A stretch of DNA of 64,000 nt, taken from Escherichia phage 132. The stretch is from sequence record MZ417521; one strand, written 5' to 3'. Below the pieces are notes generated by a model. It was not told the origin of the DNA, ran no database searches, and saw only the letters and a list, made by a program, of their open reading frames with translations. Made by a program: the position numbers and the translations under genes. Shown one piece after another: positions 2,906-63,023 of the stretch. Each line of letters opens with the position of its first letter. The stretch's first letter is position 1.

Positions 2906-3910
2906 TTAACTTACCAATTCAATCCAAGCCGGACGAAGTACATCTTGTACCATTTTAACCAATTCCTTTTTAATCAAAGAAGGATTATCCGCTTGAGTTA
3001 GAGTAATACCTTCACGAGAAGTTTCTTCCAAAATATCTTGAACAGTTAGCCCCATCACCTTTCCAAAATCCTTCGGACCAATTTCGCCAATTTTAGAAAT
3101 AACGTTATTTACTCGGTTCAGTGTAACGTAGCAAGCTAAAATTCCCAGCAATTTATTATCAGCTTCTGACAACTCAACTTTAGCTTTAATAGGCTTATCA
3201 GACTTTTTCTTTTCACTAAATTTAGAGTTCTTGCATTTAATCGCTACGCGATTGCCATTAGGCATCCAAGAAGGATAACAAGGTTTCAATACATATCCTT
3301 CAGCGGTAAATACTTCGCCTTTTGCTTCGGCATTCCAAACACATTTATTTGCATCAACTAATCCAGCATGGCCTACTGTAAAATTATAATCTTGGACGAC
3401 AGAATCTAAATCATTTGGCAATTTAATAAGCTCTTCAAATTTACCGCGACCCAAAAGTGGAGCCATTTTAAATTTAAATGTATTACAGAATGATTCCATC
3501 ATATAATCATCGACATAAGTTACATCACCACTTTCTGTAGTAACAATAATGTCAAATACATAAAAATCTTTATCACCATAATCGACATTCTTCTGAATGC
3601 CAGGTCCAGCGAATTCACCAAAGACTTGATAAGATACAACTGCTGAAGTTTCCATAATATCTTGTACTGCTTTAATGGAATCAGCGTAATTCTTTAGAAT
3701 AATTTCATACCCAAAGAAATCTTCAGCAGGAAGAATCGGTCCAGTACGTTTAGCACAAGTTGCTTTATCGCGTTCAATAATCAGTGAGAAATTTGTGCCA
3801 TGAATCTTTTCACGAGCTACCCATTCGCCGCCAGTCAATCCTAAACTATAAAGTTTTTCAATGAATTTAGAATTGTAATGATTTTCAAGACTGCTATACT
3901 TTTTAAACAT
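2906..3910 (-). CDS. rnlB: RNA ligase 2 (Rnl2)
   Basis: 334 aa; [21 protein letters not shown]-terminus and KIHGTN nucleotidyltransferase motif I match T4 Rnl2. Confidence 0.93.
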
Positions 3911-58415: not shown

Positions 58416-58565
58416 TTACTGCATGACTGTGATAACTGTCATGATAACACGTTGAATGCCGAACGCAAGAAGACCTCCTGCTACGGCTGGAACAACACCT
58501 AAACCCGCCAGTAAAATGCTACCGGATACTAATGCCGCGCTTGTAATACCAATGAATGGACTCAT
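58416..58565 (-). CDS. Small hydrophobic membrane peptide, at the T4 52.1 position
   Basis: Hand-translated 49-aa ORF MSPFIGITSAALVSGSILLAGLGVVPAVAGGLLAFG...; ATGA overlap with gene 52 stop. Confidence 0.5.
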   Translation of the reverse strand: MSPFIGITSAALVSGSILLAGLGVVPAVAGGLLAFGIQRVIMTVITVMQ

Positions 58566-59890
58566 TTGATTTCCTCTAAATCTTTAGTGTATTCGGTAAC
58601 TACATCAGTAGTTTTCCAATATTCGTTTTCTTCTTTTTTAGCTTTAGCTTCTTCTGCAAGTTTCTTTGCTTCATCAGAAGTCATATGAAAAATATTCATT
58701 CCGACTAGTTTATCAACATAAGAAGAATACATATCAATTTTAGAAAGTTCTTCGGTCAGTTCTTTGCGAGTTTTACCCTGTACAACAATTTCACCTGAAA
58801 TTACTTTCTTAATGAAATGCGCCTTGGCAAAGGCTAAACGAAATGCTGATTCAGTTTCCTTGATTTTGTTATCAATTCGTTTTTGGACGTAAGTTTTACG
58901 AACTTCAACAAAGTCTTTAATTAAATCAACTACGTTATCGTAAACTTGCAGTTTTCCTTTCTCATTAATGACGGTAATATTCTGAGAACGACGCTCAATC
59001 AACCCGAAGTCTTTCATAATTTTTGCATGGCGTTCTTCTTCATTATCGCTCAAAGAATATTCTTTACGGAATTTAACTTTGAATCCAAAACCATGCTCAC
59101 CACAAGCATCATCCCATGTAATGAAGCCTTTATCTTCAAGTGGGTCTAAGATTTTACTCACATAAGTTTCACGATCATACTTATACGGAATCTCAGTGAT
59201 ATGCATTTGAGTTCGTGAAGTAAACTTATATGTTCCACGAATTTCATATTGCCCATCAATTTCAACGACTTCACCACGAAATTCTGGGAATTCTACCTTC
59301 GGTTTAGTTACTTTCTTTCCTTGAAGAGCTTGCAGTACAGCTTTCTTAACAGAAGAAACACTATGAGGAAGAATGTAAGTTGCATAACCAGTTGCAATAC
59401 CGGAAACGCCATTAAGAAGAACAGTAGGAATAATAGGCAAATAGAAAGCAGGCGGAATGTGTTCTTTATCTTGATGTACTGGAGCATATTCAGTATCTTT
59501 ATATACGTTATAGAAATTTTTACTTACACGAGCAAAAATATAACGACTAGCTGCTGCCTTTTGGACAGTACGAGAACCGAAGTTTCCTTGACCATCTAAC
59601 AAAGGAAAGTTATTATTCCAAGTGTTAGCCATCAAAGCCCCCGCATCTTGTGCAGAGTTTTCACCATGGTGATATCCAAGGTCCGCTACACCACCTGCAA
59701 TAGAAGCGAGTTTGTGAAACTTATCTTTATTTCCTCGTGCCAAATCAAGAGCTCGAGCAATAACAAATCGTTGAACTGGCTTAAATCCATCAATCATATT
59801 TGGAATAGCACGATTTTCAACCGTGTACATAGCATAAGCCAATGCTTCATTATCAATGATACTTTTTAAATCGCGATTATTCAGTTGCAT
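58562..59890 (-). CDS. 52: DNA topoisomerase II medium subunit gp52
   Basis: 442 aa, same as T4 gp52. Confidence 0.95.
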   Translation of the reverse strand: MQLNNRDLKSIIDNEALAYAMYTVENRAIPNMIDGFKPVQRFVIARALDLARGNKDKFHKLASIAGGVADLGYHHGENSAQDAGALMANTWNNNFPLLDGQGNFGSRTVQKAAASRYIFARVSKNFYNVYKDTEYAPVHQDKEHIPPAFYLPIIPTVLLNGVSGIATGYATYILPHSVSSVKKAVLQALQGKKVTKPKVEFPEFRGEVVEIDGQYEIRGTYKFTSRTQMHITEIPYKYDRETYVSKILDPLEDKGFITWDDACGEHGFGFKVKFRKEYSLSDNEEERHAKIMKDFGLIERRSQNITVINEKGKLQVYDNVVDLIKDFVEVRKTYVQKRIDNKIKETESAFRLAFAKAHFIKKVISGEIVVQGKTRKELTEELSKIDMYSSYVDKLVGMNIFHMTSDEAKKLAEEAKAKKEENEYWKTTDVVTEYTKDLEEIK

Positions 59891-60027
59891 AAATTTACCA
59901 TACTAGTGAATGTAGTGCCATAATAACATCAGAAATGAAAAGCACGACTTGAATTAATCCAAACATTACTCCATAATATAGTGCTATTAATAAAATAGCA
60001 AGGGCTAATGAATAGCCCAAGATTTTC

Positions 60028-60186
60028 TTAATCATTAGTAGATAACAACACAAATGTTAAATATGCACACATACCCTGAGCTAAAGCTTGCGAAAACACA
60101 CTGCTAGCATCAATACAGATAGTTAAAACACATGCTACTATCCAACAAATAAATGAAATAACTCCTAATAATTTTGCAATATTCAT
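60028..60186 (-). CDS. Small membrane protein, possibly Ac (acridine sensitivity) type
   Basis: 52 aa from internal ATG (MNIAKLLGVISFICWIVACVL...); a paralogous ~51-aa peptide lies just downstream near 60195-60350. Confidence 0.5.
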   Translation of the reverse strand: MNIAKLLGVISFICWIVACVLTICIDASSVFSQALAQGMCAYLTFVLLSTND

Positions 60187-60359
60187 AATATTCTCCTCAA
60201 CTATTTTTAGAACCAATGTACGCGAATAATGATAAAATCGCTAATACGCCCTGAGCTGATGCTTGCAAAAATACTGAAGTTTCTCCAGTTATTACTGTTC
60301 CGATGCATAAAAAGAACCAACAGAAAAAGGCTATACCGTGAACAAATTTCATATTTTCC

Positions 60360-60440
60360 TCACTGGCGTCCGAAGACGCCTTTGGTTTTAAGATTGTTAC
60401 GATAGAACTGCATCACGTGTTCGTTGTGGAAATTACTCAT
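60360..60440 (-). CDS. stp: Stp peptide (suppressor of three-prime phosphatase; modulates the host Prr system)
   Basis: 26-aa [29 protein letters not shown] matches T4 Stp from memory; coordinates hand-derived, +/-1. Confidence 0.75.
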
Positions 60441-60898
60441 TAATATGCCTGCAAAACGAATTTAAAGTTATCAGCCAACATACGGTTCATTTCTTCAAGT
60501 GTTTGATACTCAGAATGATGATTACGAGTAAACGCCAAAGCTAACTGACCTTTACCAAATCCTGTCGTCAGAGGTTTCATCTTAGAAGCAGGCAGATAAA
60601 ATACTGTGTATGGAACATTGTTATTTGCAATAGTACGTGCAAGCTGAGACCGACGTTGACGAATATGACTTAGAACTGCACTGAATCCTTGCTTAGAACG
60701 CTGATTACCTACATAAAATCGTGCAGACACGCATGGATTACTAAATAGACGACCATCTAATTTACTTACTAAAAAGTAAAATCCAGGTTTAGATAAAATA
60801 TCTTTATGCGGAGTTCCCAAAAACCATTCACCACCCTTGATTGTACCAATAACAGTAGCACCTGCGTTGTTCAGATCAGTAACAGTCATATATTTCAT
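60440..60898 (-). CDS. ndd: Ndd nucleoid disruption protein
   Basis: 152 aa from [15 protein letters not shown] (track ORF begins at an upstream GTG). Confidence 0.9.
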
Positions 60899-60958
60899 AT
60901 TAATTTCCTCTAAATTATTTTCTACTCCAAGGCCGCATGAATACACACGGCCATTAAA

Positions 60959-61174
60959 TTACTCGTCGCAGTCGACGCTCAATTCCCAGAATTCTTCTAC
61001 GGTGTAAGTTTCAGTATCATTTTCAATACAGAAACGTTCATTACTATTATTTGCTAAAGTAGCATTAACTGTCGGTTTCTCGCTAGTGCTCTTAAGAGGT
61101 GAAATACGAATTAACTGATCACCATTATCTAAACAGAAAATTTCACCAACTTTTACATCTTTAAAACTTTTCAT
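60959..61174 (-). CDS. Hypothetical protein, ndd.x cluster
   Basis: 71-aa ORF. Confidence 0.6.
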   Translation of the reverse strand: MKSFKDVKVGEIFCLDNGDQLIRISPLKSTSEKPTVNATLANNSNERFCIENDTETYTVEEFWELSVDCDE

Positions 61175-61289
61175 AATTCACCTCAAGGAGTATAAAATCC
61201 AAATGCAGTTGTTGACCATCCCATCCAATATGGGAAATTTGCGCCAATGTAAAACATAAGAATATAAAACCAAATGTTTAGTAAATTCA

Positions 61290-61508
61290 TCATTTTACAC
61301 CATTCCAAATTGTTTCAACTACGGATTTTAAACCGTTTTGATGAATATCCATTCCGACTACCGCCATCAAATAGATTCCAACTACAACTGAACCTAAGGC
61401 AAAAATCAGCATGAAAATGAACAAAGCCGGAAAAATATTATCGAAAAACCATTCAATAAATGTAAAAGCACTGCGTTTACGCTTCATATTTTCCTCACAT
61501 AAATCCAA
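61290..61508 (-). CDS. Small membrane protein, ndd.x cluster
   Basis: 72-aa ORF with hydrophobic helix ALFIFMLIFALGSVVVGIYLMAVV. Confidence 0.55.
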   Translation of the reverse strand: MDLCEENMKRKRSAFTFIEWFFDNIFPALFIFMLIFALGSVVVGIYLMAVVGMDIHQNGLKSVVETIWNGVK

Positions 61509-61619
61509 AGTAAGCGTTTAATACATCAATCATTAAAACGATTGGGAATATACTCAAAACTATTAGTATTATAACTACATTCCATATAGCTTTAATAATC
61601 TTTTTCATTTTCTGTTCCT

Positions 61620-61665
61620 CCGTAGTTGATAGGGTAATAGTACCACGGAAGAACAGTCTTGTAAA
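61620..61665 (-). promoter_or_regulatory. T4-type early promoter
   Basis: Minus strand GTTTAC, spacer, TATTAC-cctatcaactac. Confidence 0.5.
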
Positions 61666-61851
61666 CAACTTTTTTAAAAATATTCGTAATAAATGTGAAT
61701 ACCAACTACTACCGCTGAAACCTGTGCAACCCACCACGCACAAGCAATAAGTACAGAATTCAAAATTTTCATAATAACCTCATCACAAAAGTAAATGTTA
61801 AACAAATCAATGGAATACTAATTAACCAAACAAAACACCACCATAATGAAC

Positions 61852-62115
61852 TCATAGTTCAATCTCAATGATTTCAAGATTATTTTCTTTAATAGCTTTC
61901 TTTAAATCATCGTAAATAAGAACTTCCCAAGAATTGTTTAAATCACCATTCAACAAACGCTCTTGTTGCAATTTATCAGTAAGATATGGTTGGTCTGATT
62001 CATATTTAGACAATCCCAATGAAATAAATGATGTTGCATCGTCAATTTCAGAATATTGTACATGAACAAATTCACCTGTGATTTTATGTTTAACATAAAA
62101 GAATTTAAATTTCAT
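61852..62115 (-). CDS. Hypothetical protein, ndd.x / denB-proximal cluster
   Basis: 87-aa ORF with upstream early promoter. Confidence 0.6.
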   Translation of the reverse strand: MKFKFFYVKHKITGEFVHVQYSEIDDATSFISLGLSKYESDQPYLTDKLQQERLLNGDLNNSWEVLIYDDLKKAIKENNLEIIEIEL

Positions 62116-62121
62116 TTTTGT

Positions 62122-62170
62122 TCCTCTGTAGTTGATAGTTGTATAGTACCACGGTCCTTGTGGTATGTAA
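62122..62170 (-). promoter_or_regulatory. T4-type early promoter
   Basis: Minus strand GTTTAC, 17-nt spacer, TATACA-actatcaactacag. Confidence 0.6.
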
Positions 62171-62188
62171 ACTAGTTTATGAAATTTT

Positions 62189-62746
62189 TTAGATGGAAAG
62201 ATACCATCCGTTGTAGTTGCTTTTTCGCACTACCTTACGAAGGTCTTCTCTATCACCGATGAATTTCGGAGTGTACTGGATGACACCTGGATGAATTTCT
62301 TTAGTGTTGAATATAATTATACAGTCAGCGACTTGATGATTTAGAATGGGCCCTAAATTTATTCCAGAACCATATGGATACTCTCCGCTGCATCCCGTTG
62401 TTACCGAAATCCAACGCGAGTCAGTTTGATGTGTTTTGACTTCTACACGAAGCCCGCAATATTTTGGATGCGCTAAAACATCCCATGCATACGTGTACGG
62501 ATCATCGACATTTTCTTGGCCTTTATTGACATATCCGCTTAGCCAATCTGCCACAAAAAACTCTGCGTACACAGCGATACGGCATCTTTCGATAACTTCT
62601 GCTTTATCCTGGTTCGGGTTTTGTTTTAAAGAGTATCTTGCTGTATCAGCAATTTTGACCTTCATTTCATTGGTTAAATCGCTGTTCGATAGAGTAAATG
62701 TCGGAATCTGAAATAGTCTCTGCAAACCCGGATTCGTTTTCTGCAT
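62189..62746 (-). CDS. denB: Endonuclease IV
   Basis: 185 aa, same as T4 DenB. Confidence 0.9.
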   Translation of the reverse strand: MQKTNPGLQRLFQIPTFTLSNSDLTNEMKVKIADTARYSLKQNPNQDKAEVIERCRIAVYAEFFVADWLSGYVNKGQENVDDPYTYAWDVLAHPKYCGLRVEVKTHQTDSRWISVTTGCSGEYPYGSGINLGPILNHQVADCIIIFNTKEIHPGVIQYTPKFIGDREDLRKVVRKSNYNGWYLSI

Positions 62747-62811
62747 TTAAACTTTCCTTTATGTCGGAATCACTGATATTCATATAAATCATAATTTCTC
62801 TTAAAACAAAA

Positions 62812-62823
62812 GGGCCGAAGCCC
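62812..62823 (-). terminator. Hairpin GGGC-CGAA-GCCC
   Basis: GC stem with flanking T-run. Confidence 0.45.
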
Positions 62824-62828
62824 TTATT

Positions 62829-63023
62829 TTATTTGAATTGTGCAATTCTTTTCTCTAGACATTCAGCATAAGATTTCATTGAGATAAACTGCGAAAGTAA
62901 CAGTTCTTGCTCAACTGCACTAACCGTTAGAAACTTTGCGCTTTCTAAAAATTTACTCAGTGCATTAATTTTGAGCATTAATTGATCGTATTCTTCTTTT
63001 ACTCGTGCTTGATAACCTAACAT
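62829..63023 (-). CDS. Hypothetical protein, at the T4 denB.1 position
   Basis: 64-aa ORF. Confidence 0.6.
   Translation of the reverse strand: MLGYQARVKEEYDQLMLKINALSKFLESAKFLTVSAVEQELLLSQFISMKSYAECLEKRIAQFK

Follow-up and report, generated by a model that had tools for sequence, protein, structure and literature searches.

A dense run of very short open reading frames (ORFs) lies between gene 52 and denB in the stretch of Escherichia phage 132 that we analysed (sequence record MZ417521; 64,000 nucleotides, referred to here as the window). It raises the question of whether such short frames are genes at all and, if they are, what their mostly hydrophobic products do and what is to be made of two of them that look like tandem copies of each other.

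Identity and gene content of the block

The window is from a Tequatrovirus and is 97.5% identical to phage sutha over this region. We read positions 59895–61855 of the minus strand with high confidence as the usual, dispensable set of early accessory genes that T-even phages carry between the topoisomerase gene 52 and denB, with the expression, products and ac pair set out below. Public annotations and family libraries already include the block genes in this arrangement, together with the early promoters and even the second ac copy. The T4 gene set (52.1, ac, stp, ndd, ndd.1, ndd.2, ndd.2a, ndd.4, ndd.5 and ndd.6) is found within these limits, together with one gene beyond it, the second ac-family peptide at 60197–60352 (Table 1). 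The annotated T4 region, peptide comparison and tblastn show that the calls of 52, stp, ndd and denB in a first-pass annotation were correct; the ORF positions that it named also agree with ours, with every ORF on the minus strand, and it was right that small hydrophobic peptides are densely clustered here and include a tandem paralogous pair. Its count of at least six ORFs of 26 to 72 codons holds as to the presence of small ORFs, but there are ten of them and the largest has 71 codons. The 72-codon frame starts at an upstream TTG, and the ATG with a GAGGA Shine–Dalgarno sequence gives the 65-residue ndd.2a instead.

The corresponding region of T4 (NC_000866, 165209–166996) shares with the window the gene order, the strand, the flanking genes 52 and denB and both early promoters, and the peptides are 91–100% identical. 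Compared with T4, the window adds a B-type ac between stp and ac and an 87-residue ORF between ndd.6 and denB; its Ac has one extra Thr near the C-terminus and its ndd.2a is an intact frame of 65 residues, whereas that of T4 is split into ndd.2a and ndd.3. The split in the T4 reference is caused by a missing G, and a one-base error has most likely produced the ndd.2a/ndd.3 annotation as an artefact.

Table 1. Genes and other features of the block and its upstream flank (positions in the window).
Feature	Position	Strand	Description
52.1	59895-60035	-	46 aa, very hydrophobic, DUF7396
ac, A (T4) type, MNIAKLL...	60028-60186	-	52 aa; ortholog of the T4 acridine-sensitivity gene ac
Second ac-family peptide, B type, MKFVHG...	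60197-60352	-	51 aa; no counterpart in T4
stp	60360-60440	-	26 aa, hydrophilic
C(UUCG)G tetraloop hairpin GGCGUCUUCGGACGCC	60365-60380	-	Within the 3' end of stp
ndd, nucleoid disruption protein	60440-60898	-	152 aa
ndd.1	60959-61174	-	71 aa, acidic, soluble
ndd.2	61183-61290	-	35 aa, aromatic-rich, borderline hydrophobicity
Full-length ndd.2a (DUF7248)	61290-61487	-	65 aa membrane protein (predicted)
ndd.4	61495-61608	-	37 aa, single-helix membrane peptide (predicted)
T4-type early promoter	61637-61666	-	Upstream of ndd.4
ndd.5	61674-61772	-	32 aa membrane peptide (predicted)
ndd.6	61769-61855	-	28 aa membrane peptide (predicted)
orf87	61852-62115	-	87 aa, soluble, acidic; no counterpart in T4
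T4-type early promoter	62143-62172	-	Upstream of orf87, ndd.6 and ndd.5

Conservation of the short frames

An IMG/VR scan with Ndd returned only five near-identical loci, so conservation was assessed in annotated phage records, with 17 related loci as tblastn targets. The product of 52.1 is 96% identical to T4 gp52.1 and matches phrog_3595 and, over residues 1–46 of 46, Pfam PF24129 (DUF7396; E = 1.3e-22, 80.1 bits against a cut-off of 27); it is present in all 17 loci, with its lowest identity (54%) in Klebsiella phages, and has a pN/pS of 0.31. Stp is 100% identical to T4 Stp and matches Pfam PF08133 (Nuclease_act; E = 2e-21) above the curated cut-off. Ndd and Ndd.1 are 97% and 99% identical to their T4 counterparts (pN/pS 0.09 for ndd; phrog_2183 for ndd.1), and ndd.2 (phrog_4135) is 91–100% identical across 11 Tequatrovirus loci with a pN/pS of 0.15. 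The full-length ndd.2a matches phrog_2401 and Pfam PF23906 (DUF7248; E = 4.4e-20, 71.9 bits against a cut-off of 27, profile positions 4–57 of 58), and its pN/pS over 11 sequences is 0.09. Identities for ndd.4 (phrog_3098) are 92–97% in Tequatrovirus and 58% in Gaprivervirus, and ndd.5 (phrog_5011) is 97–100% identical in 11 loci. ndd.6 (phrog_8851; pN/pS 0.47) is found in Tequatrovirus, Gaprivervirus (39%) and Mosigvirus (50%). The flanking orf87 (phrog_2390, E = 7.6e-39) is 98% identical in sutha and about 53% identical in most other Tequatrovirus loci.

Frames of this length could be chance openings in AT-rich and T-rich DNA, which would naturally code for hydrophobic residues, and some results lean that way: a generic sigma-70 promoter scan gave 19 sites against 13.3 ± 3.8 in shuffled sequences, which is not above background; NCBIfam holds no model for any of the nine block peptides tested; and the hydrophobic peptides of the block are all marked 'NA' (undetected) in a T4 proteome time course (PMC9697503, Table S2). 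This last point is weak evidence against translation, as tryptic mass spectrometry is expected to miss hydrophobic peptides this small. The lack of conservation by which the first-pass annotation proposed to recognize chance ORFs was looked for, and the opposite was found. The small ORFs are intact in every relative examined (4–15 distinct homologous sequences each), with strong third-position bias and pN/pS values of 0.08–0.52, and of the six frames it is always the called one that has the lowest pN/pS; constraint is only moderate for the B-type ac, ndd.4 and ndd.6 (pN/pS ∼0.5). All ten ORFs of up to 71 codons match a PHROG family, and for three of them there is also a Pfam match that passes the curated threshold (DUF7396, DUF7248 and Nuclease_act). 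The ORFs follow one another along one strand, with Shine–Dalgarno sites or overlapping stop and start codons, and homologues extend to Klebsiella phages, in which 52.1 is 54% and ac 44% identical. The PHROG matches, the intactness in relatives and the low pN/pS of the called frame thus indicate, at the level of sequence, that the small ORFs are not chance ORFs; the conservation data refute the chance reading, which we consider barely credible.

Promoters and translation signals

As promoters we accepted only the two sites that show the extended T4 early consensus, and these only after a conservation check. They have the form GTTTACA-N15-TGGTACTAT, at 62172 and 61666, and are conserved across most of the relatives examined. 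Every Tequatrovirus locus has the promoter upstream of ndd.4 in this position, identical or with one substitution; the promoter is part of a 40-nt repeat (D3). The one upstream of orf87, which is the first gene after it, is present in most of the Tequatrovirus loci examined, with no match in Aplg8. Mosigvirus and one of two Klebsiella-phage loci have divergent versions of it at the corresponding positions. Several of the peptides had been credited with their own early promoters; early-type promoters do exist, but the claim is overstated, as two promoters serve two polycistronic groups and four ORFs start at overlapping stop and start codons. From these two sigma-70 T4-type early promoters, polycistronic mRNAs would be made from which the ten very short genes would be translated. 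Six of the ten have their own GAGG-type Shine–Dalgarno sequence, that of ndd.4 being GGAGGA, and the overlapping codons of the other four suggest translational coupling. The ATG of 52.1 overlaps the ac stop by 8 nt, the start of stp overlaps the ndd stop (TAATG), that of ndd.2 overlaps the upstream stop and that of ndd.6 overlaps the stop of orf87. In T4 the transcripts of 52.1, ac, stp and ndd.2–ndd.6 are classed as early and Ndd.1 has been detected as an early protein (PMC9697503, Table S2).

The hairpin at the 3' end of stp has a stem of six pairs, five of them G–C, and lies just upstream of the Shine–Dalgarno sequence of the next gene; its positions are invariant or G–U compensated in six phages. 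An Rfam scan of 59700–62900 at E ≤ 1 returned no RNA family.

Membrane character of the products

Seven peptides are clearly above the transmembrane hydropathy threshold, with Kyte–Doolittle maxima of 2.15–3.06 (for instance 2.48 for 52.1, 3.06 for Ndd.4 and 2.17 for Ndd.5), and Ndd.2 is borderline (1.29). Ndd.2a has an N-terminal KRKR, a 30-residue uncharged segment and a polar tail. Stp is hydrophilic (GRAVY −1.03), as is Ndd.1, which has a net charge of −8 and no hydrophobic segment. Both ac products have two hydrophobic helix-length segments separated by a short polar loop, with uncharged runs at 6–25/27–51 in the A type and 3–23/25–48 in the B type. An AlphaFold2 model of the B-type Ac is a helix–loop–helix hairpin (helices 2–22 and 27–50) of medium confidence (pLDDT 75.9), and T4 Ac has likewise been reported as a two-helix hairpin (bioRxiv 10.1101/2025.06.30.662393). 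The expectation that most of the peptides consist of a single transmembrane helix therefore stands as far as their hydrophobic, membrane-type character goes, but the model of the B-type Ac shows a hairpin, and the ten include two soluble products, Stp and Ndd.1. Hydropathy and the one medium-confidence model suggest that membrane insertion is most likely, and the eight hydrophobic products (52.1, the two Ac peptides, Ndd.2, Ndd.2a, Ndd.4, Ndd.5 and Ndd.6) would most likely enter the inner membrane of the host in the first minutes of infection.

The two ac genes

The paralogy proposed for the two peptides of about 50 residues is supported by BLASTP (17 of 40 residues identical, 43%, E = 6e-10) and by matches of residues 1–50 of both to phrog_2501 (E = 3.7e-25 for the A type and 4.9e-26 for the B type). 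Both lie in the ac slot between stp/ndd and 52.1, and both have the SVF-x-Q-x(2)-AQG motif of the family, in which S26, V27, F28, Q30, A33, Q34 and G35 are invariant alignment columns and which includes the glycine that is G38 in T4. The first-pass annotation had missed that the MNIAKLL peptide is T4 ac itself and that the MKFVHG peptide is a widespread form absent from T4. The A-type product is 96% identical to T4 Ac (pN/pS 0.08), and the Ac variant with the additional Thr is reported to be functional in phage PP01 (bioRxiv 10.1101/2025.06.30.662393). Pfam PF26944 (Phage_T4_Ac), precomputed on close homologues of the B type, already covers B-type members; our local Pfam scan gave no match for either copy, and the local release probably lacks this newer model. 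A word-indexed homologue search gave only seven clusters, and an exhaustive HMM search of 1.84 billion representatives found only six clusters of ∼50 residues and two spurious long proteins, which marks the family as narrow and confined to T4-like phages.

The tandem pair is present in 50 of 485 matching phage records (∼10%) and is 98–100% conserved there. Aplg8 (KT184308), sutha (PV245934), SHBML-50-1 and pSs-1 have the same arrangement with two annotated acridine-resistance genes ('acridine resistance protein' twice in Aplg8), and in Aplg8 and sutha both copies are 100% identical to the window proteins. Across the tandem-ac Tequatroviruses the 325-nt pair has 98–99.7% DNA identity to the window, with no substantive difference. 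Phages with a single copy have either the A or the B type in one slot with identical flanking sequence. The single B-type ac of RB51, RB33, RB68, Gaprivervirus, Mosigvirus and Jiaodavirus shares the slot, the length and the TGETSVF-Q-AQG core with the window B copy but, unlike the window, these phages lack an A-type copy.

Two adjacent genes of the same length and strand, with a 47-nt stretch found in both at 72% DNA identity (repeat D2), might be taken for a recent local duplication in this lineage, with the second copy redundant or a decaying spare. Yet the copies are only 43% identical, and the B copy resembles the single ac of other phages (72–81% for RB51, RB33, UPEC01 and Gaprivervirus, 44–61% for Mosigvirus and Jiaodavirus) more than it does its neighbour; both copies are intact and conserved as a pair in the 50 records, and a peptide intermediate between the two types was found in a metagenome. 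We rejected recent duplication on the low identity and on the closeness of the B copy to the ac of other phages, and regard it as very improbable. The A type was observed only in Tequatrovirus, and B-like copies were also found in Gaprivervirus, Mosigvirus and Jiaodavirus. Read from sequence, the B type appears as the older, widespread Tevenvirinae form and the textbook ac of T4 as a lineage-restricted paralog.

Functions of the block

The peptides had been proposed to be host-takeover or defence-modulating factors. Such a role is documented for Ac (acridine sensitivity) and Stp (EcoprrI/PrrC), but Stp is not a membrane peptide and the others have no such record; only Ac, Stp and Ndd are known to have a documented biochemical function. 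The T4 peptide to which Stp is identical is reported to inhibit the type Ic restriction enzyme EcoprrI and thereby to trigger PrrC (PMC1484252). Expression of Ac sensitizes E. coli to acriflavine and the G38R variant is resistant (bioRxiv 10.1101/2025.06.30.662393; also PMC13250531); a block of AcrAB-TolC by Ac is a hypothesis of the preprint, in which the interaction is only proposed (bioRxiv 10.1101/2025.06.30.662393). The A-type Ac would thus cause acridine to accumulate in infected cells, possibly through blocked AcrAB-TolC efflux. We infer that the B copy may act in a similar way, perhaps against another membrane target, as it keeps SVF-Q-AQG including the glycine whose change to Arg makes T4 acriflavine-resistant.

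E. coli AcrZ (49 residues, AcrB-binding; PDB entries 4C48 and 5NG5) offers a functional analogy only, being a membrane peptide of about 50 residues that modulates AcrAB-TolC, as proposed for Ac. AcrZ, a single bent helix, helps the pump, but Ac is predicted to be a two-helix hairpin and is proposed to block it. Homology of the two was rejected (hhalign probability 0.2%), and a PDB sequence search with the Ac profile gave no match at E ≤ 10.

The T4 deletion sa-delta-9 removes 52.1 through denB; the phage is viable with a 50% yield and does not stimulate phospholipid synthesis, and this loss of phage-induced phosphatidylglycerol synthesis is the only phenotype linked to the interval (PMC6071114). 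It could mean that the hydrophobic peptides, instead of each having its own target, form one module that remodels the inner membrane (for example in the phosphatidylglycerol burst, lysis timing or superinfection exclusion). The deletion covers exactly this interval, no gene lost with it looks like a lipid enzyme, and a membrane location is predicted for several of the products (PMC6071114); the genes are also co-transcribed from the two early promoters. Against this, gene content varies between genera, which is unlike an obligate complex: over the 17 loci, tblastn matches to ndd.2 and ndd.5 came from Tequatrovirus alone, and Mosigvirus gave none to stp, ndd.2a or ndd.4. Moreover, sa-delta-9 also removes ndd and denB, and denB/alc/dCTPase mutants likewise lack phosphatidylglycerol stimulation (PMC6071114). 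We judge a single module to be unlikely.

The value of the analysis lies in clarification (the ac types, the lipid interval and the ndd.2a/ndd.3 annotation) and little in discovery. Phage-induced phospholipid synthesis is lost on deletion of just one interval, the one that encodes the block peptides, and this makes them a small and tractable knockout target. Beyond the accessory-block reading, it is a speculative idea, to which we give little weight, that the A and B types represent one inhibitor of membrane proteins in two versions of different specificity or, alternatively, that the eight-peptide battery triggers the T4 phosphatidylglycerol burst. As specificity variants, the two types may act on different inner-membrane targets, for example RND efflux pumps, or on the pumps of different enterobacterial hosts, and phages may swap or stack Ac types in a fixed cassette slot, with effects on host range or on resistance to host-made intercalators. 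Both Ac types merit study, that of T4 as the apparently restricted paralog and the B type as the apparently pan-Tevenvirinae form.

Gene content and coding status

The region was mapped by comparison with the annotated T4 reference and by translation of all candidate ORFs. The first-pass annotation, which had described a cluster of small hydrophobic peptides here, had the coordinates and gene names right; where it counted at least six small ORFs, the cluster has ten with no more than 71 codons each. Positions 59800–62200 are 97.5% identical to Escherichia phage sutha and match 555 phage records, of which almost all come from Tequatrovirus (T4-like) phages with Escherichia, Shigella, Yersinia and Salmonella hosts. 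Existing annotations of T4 and related phages already cover the block, duplicated ac included.

Positions of the genes and early promoters between and flanking gene 52 and denB
Feature	Position	Strand	Length (aa)	Remarks
gene 52	58562–59890			one flank of the block
52.1	59895–60035	−	46	
ac (A type)	60028–60186	−	52	
second ac-family gene (B type)	60197–60352	−	51	
stp	60360–60440	−	26	
ndd	60440–60898	−	152	
ndd.1	60959–61174	−	71	
ndd.2	61183–61290	−	35	
ndd.2a, full length	61290–61487	−	65	
ndd.4	61495–61608	−	37	
early promoter	61666–61637	−		upstream of ndd.4 and genes beyond
ndd.5	61674–61772	−	32	
ndd.6	61769–61855	−	28	
orf87	61852–62115	−	87	no T4 counterpart; phrog_2390; acidic, soluble; between ndd.6 and denB
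early promoter	62172–62143	−		upstream of orf87, ndd.6 and ndd.5
denB	62189–62746			other flank of the block

The small ORFs are real genes. Each of the small peptides has a PHROG family match (E values of 1e-17 to 1e-38), and 52.1 (DUF7396), the 65-residue protein (DUF7248) and Stp (PF08133) match Pfam families above the curated cut-offs. We compared 17 homologous loci, from T4, sutha, RB51, RB33, Aplg8, five IMG/VR contigs and Gaprivervirus, Mosigvirus and Jiaodavirus phages; tblastn recovered each peptide in Tequatrovirus loci and several in other genera. The codon alignments are gap-free with intact frames in all families, the sole deviations being T4 Ac, which is one residue shorter, and T4 ndd.2a, which lacks one base. 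Third codon positions carry an excess of variation, and among the six frames pN/pS is lowest in the called one for every family; pooled values are lowest for ac A type (0.08), the 65-residue ORF (0.09) and ndd.2 (0.15) and highest (∼0.5) for ac B type, ndd.4 and ndd.6. Chance ORFs in AT-rich DNA are rejected on these family matches, intact frames and pN/pS values. GAGG-type Shine–Dalgarno sites are present for six of the ORFs, and four start codons (52.1, stp, ndd.2 and ndd.6) overlap the upstream stop, the usual arrangement in T4.

In the T4 reference (NC_000866, AF158101 and X75802; positions 3433–3629 of the T4 locus, L001) one G is missing at codon 2 of the 65-residue DUF7248 gene, which yields the annotated 'ndd.2a' (40 residues) and an out-of-frame 'ndd.3' (26 residues). 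A 121-nt query gave a 122-nt match to the independent T4 sequences HM137666, KJ477684, KJ477685, OZ209023 and OZ209057 and to other relatives among the matches listed (∼490 records match overall), implying an extra base and an intact 65-residue ORF in those strains and relatives. The split most likely stems from an error made when T4 was first sequenced.

Two neighbouring genes may be mentioned. orf87 has two allelic forms (98% identity in sutha, ∼53% in most other Tequatrovirus loci), with homologues at 33–43% identity in Gaprivervirus and Mosigvirus. Just past gene 52, motA.1 (58416–58565, minus strand) encodes a conserved, very hydrophobic 49-residue peptide (Kyte–Doolittle maximum 2.26), so the run of tiny membrane peptides reaches beyond the reported interval.

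The tandem ac genes

The two ∼50-residue peptides, proposed earlier to be paralogous, are true paralogues: 17 of 40 residues are identical (E = 6e-10) and both belong to phrog_2501. The MNIAKLL peptide (A type) is the ac product of T4 itself, with 96% identity and one additional C-terminal Thr that is reported to be functionally neutral in phage PP01 (bioRxiv 10.1101/2025.06.30.662393). The MKFVHG peptide (B type), which T4 lacks, shares 72–81% identity with the lone 'ac' product of RB51, RB33 and Gaprivervirus UPEC01 and 44–61% with that of Mosigvirus and Jiaodavirus phages, whereas the A type reaches only 32–44% against all of these and was seen in Tequatrovirus only among the loci compared. 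The 'extra' B-type copy is thus the form spread across the Tevenvirinae.

In single-copy phages either type occupies the same slot with identical flanks: the stp hairpin and then GAGGAAAATATG upstream, and AAAAATGATTAAG, overlapping the 52.1 start, downstream. A 325-nt query across both genes was at least 80% covered in 50 of 485 matching records, and several tandem-pair records already carry two genes labelled 'acridine resistance protein'. Searched exhaustively with an HMM, a set of 1.84 billion representative proteins yielded only six ∼50-residue clusters; PF26944 ('Phage_T4_Ac') in Pfam already takes in B-type members. An S-V-F-x-Q-x-x-A-Q-G core is invariant in both types, its glycine being T4 G38, and the G38R substitution confers acriflavine resistance on T4 (bioRxiv 10.1101/2025.06.30.662393).

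One of these six clusters, a 50-residue Ac-family peptide (P0009; positions 912–1064 of L018, a 1.4 kb metagenomic contig from Logan SRR8048111) encoded downstream of an ndd homologue, combines B-type loop residues (TGES) with an A-type second helix (QGTCAYLTF) and is an intermediate linking the two types.

A hairpin with a C(UUCG)G tetraloop, GGCGUCUUCGGACGCC, is formed by the last codons of stp (GVFGR; 60365–60380, minus strand) and lies a few bases before the Shine–Dalgarno site of the next gene. The hairpin is kept in six phages, with a G–U change in UPEC01, and has no Rfam match; a role in mRNA stability or processing is possible. In UPEC01 (L010, 2329–2487) the Stp homologue is annotated at 52 residues: a hydrophobic N-terminal extension of 26 residues, MIKLLLLCALVVGISVLNAYAKCVVY, precedes the Stp Met in the same frame. 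Either the annotated start lies too far upstream or this is a Stp variant anchored in the membrane.

Membrane character

The earlier description of most of the peptides as single transmembrane helices is only partly right. Kyte–Doolittle 19-residue maxima are 2.15–3.06 for 52.1, both Ac peptides, the 65-residue protein, Ndd.4, Ndd.5 and Ndd.6, but the aromatic-rich Ndd.2 is borderline (1.29). Two of the products are soluble: Stp (GRAVY −1.03) and Ndd.1 (net charge −8). The AlphaFold2 model of the B-type Ac, from a nine-sequence alignment, has two helices (2–22 and 27–50) joined at the TGET loop (mean pLDDT 75.9), in agreement with the hairpin that ESMfold is reported to give for T4 Ac (bioRxiv 10.1101/2025.06.30.662393). 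We infer inner-membrane insertion, at an early stage of infection, for the eight hydrophobic peptides.

Promoters and expression

The generic promoter count in the region shows no excess over shuffles, so only the two sites with the full T4 early-promoter form, GTTTACA-N15-TGGTACTAT, were accepted; both belong to a 40-nt direct repeat. The ndd.4-proximal promoter keeps its position in all Tequatrovirus loci and differs by one substitution at most; its orf87-proximal counterpart is found in most of them and is unmatched in Aplg8. Mosigvirus has divergent counterparts at matching positions, and Klebsiella phages have counterparts of one or both sites. In T4, 52.1, ac, stp, ndd.2, ndd.2a and ndd.3–ndd.6 are early transcripts by RNA-seq with products not detected ('NA') in the proteome, in which Ndd and Ndd.1 do appear, as early proteins (PMC9697503 Table S2).

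Function

Ac sets acridine sensitivity and, expressed from a plasmid, makes E. coli more sensitive to both acriflavine and ampicillin; block of AcrAB-TolC by Ac is the authors' hypothesis (bioRxiv 10.1101/2025.06.30.662393; repeated in PMC13250531). As the functionally critical motif is kept, the B-type Ac would be expected to have the same kind of activity. No homology was detected between Ac and AcrZ, an AcrB-binding peptide, and Ac has no relative in the PDB; its resemblance to AcrZ would be a functional analogy only. Stp inhibits the type Ic restriction enzyme EcoprrI and thereby unleashes the PrrC anticodon nuclease (PMC1484252). The T4 deletion sa-delta-9, which removes 52.1 through denB, is viable with a halved yield and abolishes phage-induced phospholipid and phosphatidylglycerol synthesis; the same source gives the ndd.1–ndd.6 products as of unknown function (PMC6071114).

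The earlier interpretation of these peptides as host-takeover or defence-modulating factors is broadly right but generic. Worth keeping are the A/B relationship of the ac paralogues, the location of the Ndd.x and 52.1 peptides within the sa-delta-9 interval and the apparent one-base T4 reference error behind the 'ndd.2a' and 'ndd.3' annotations.
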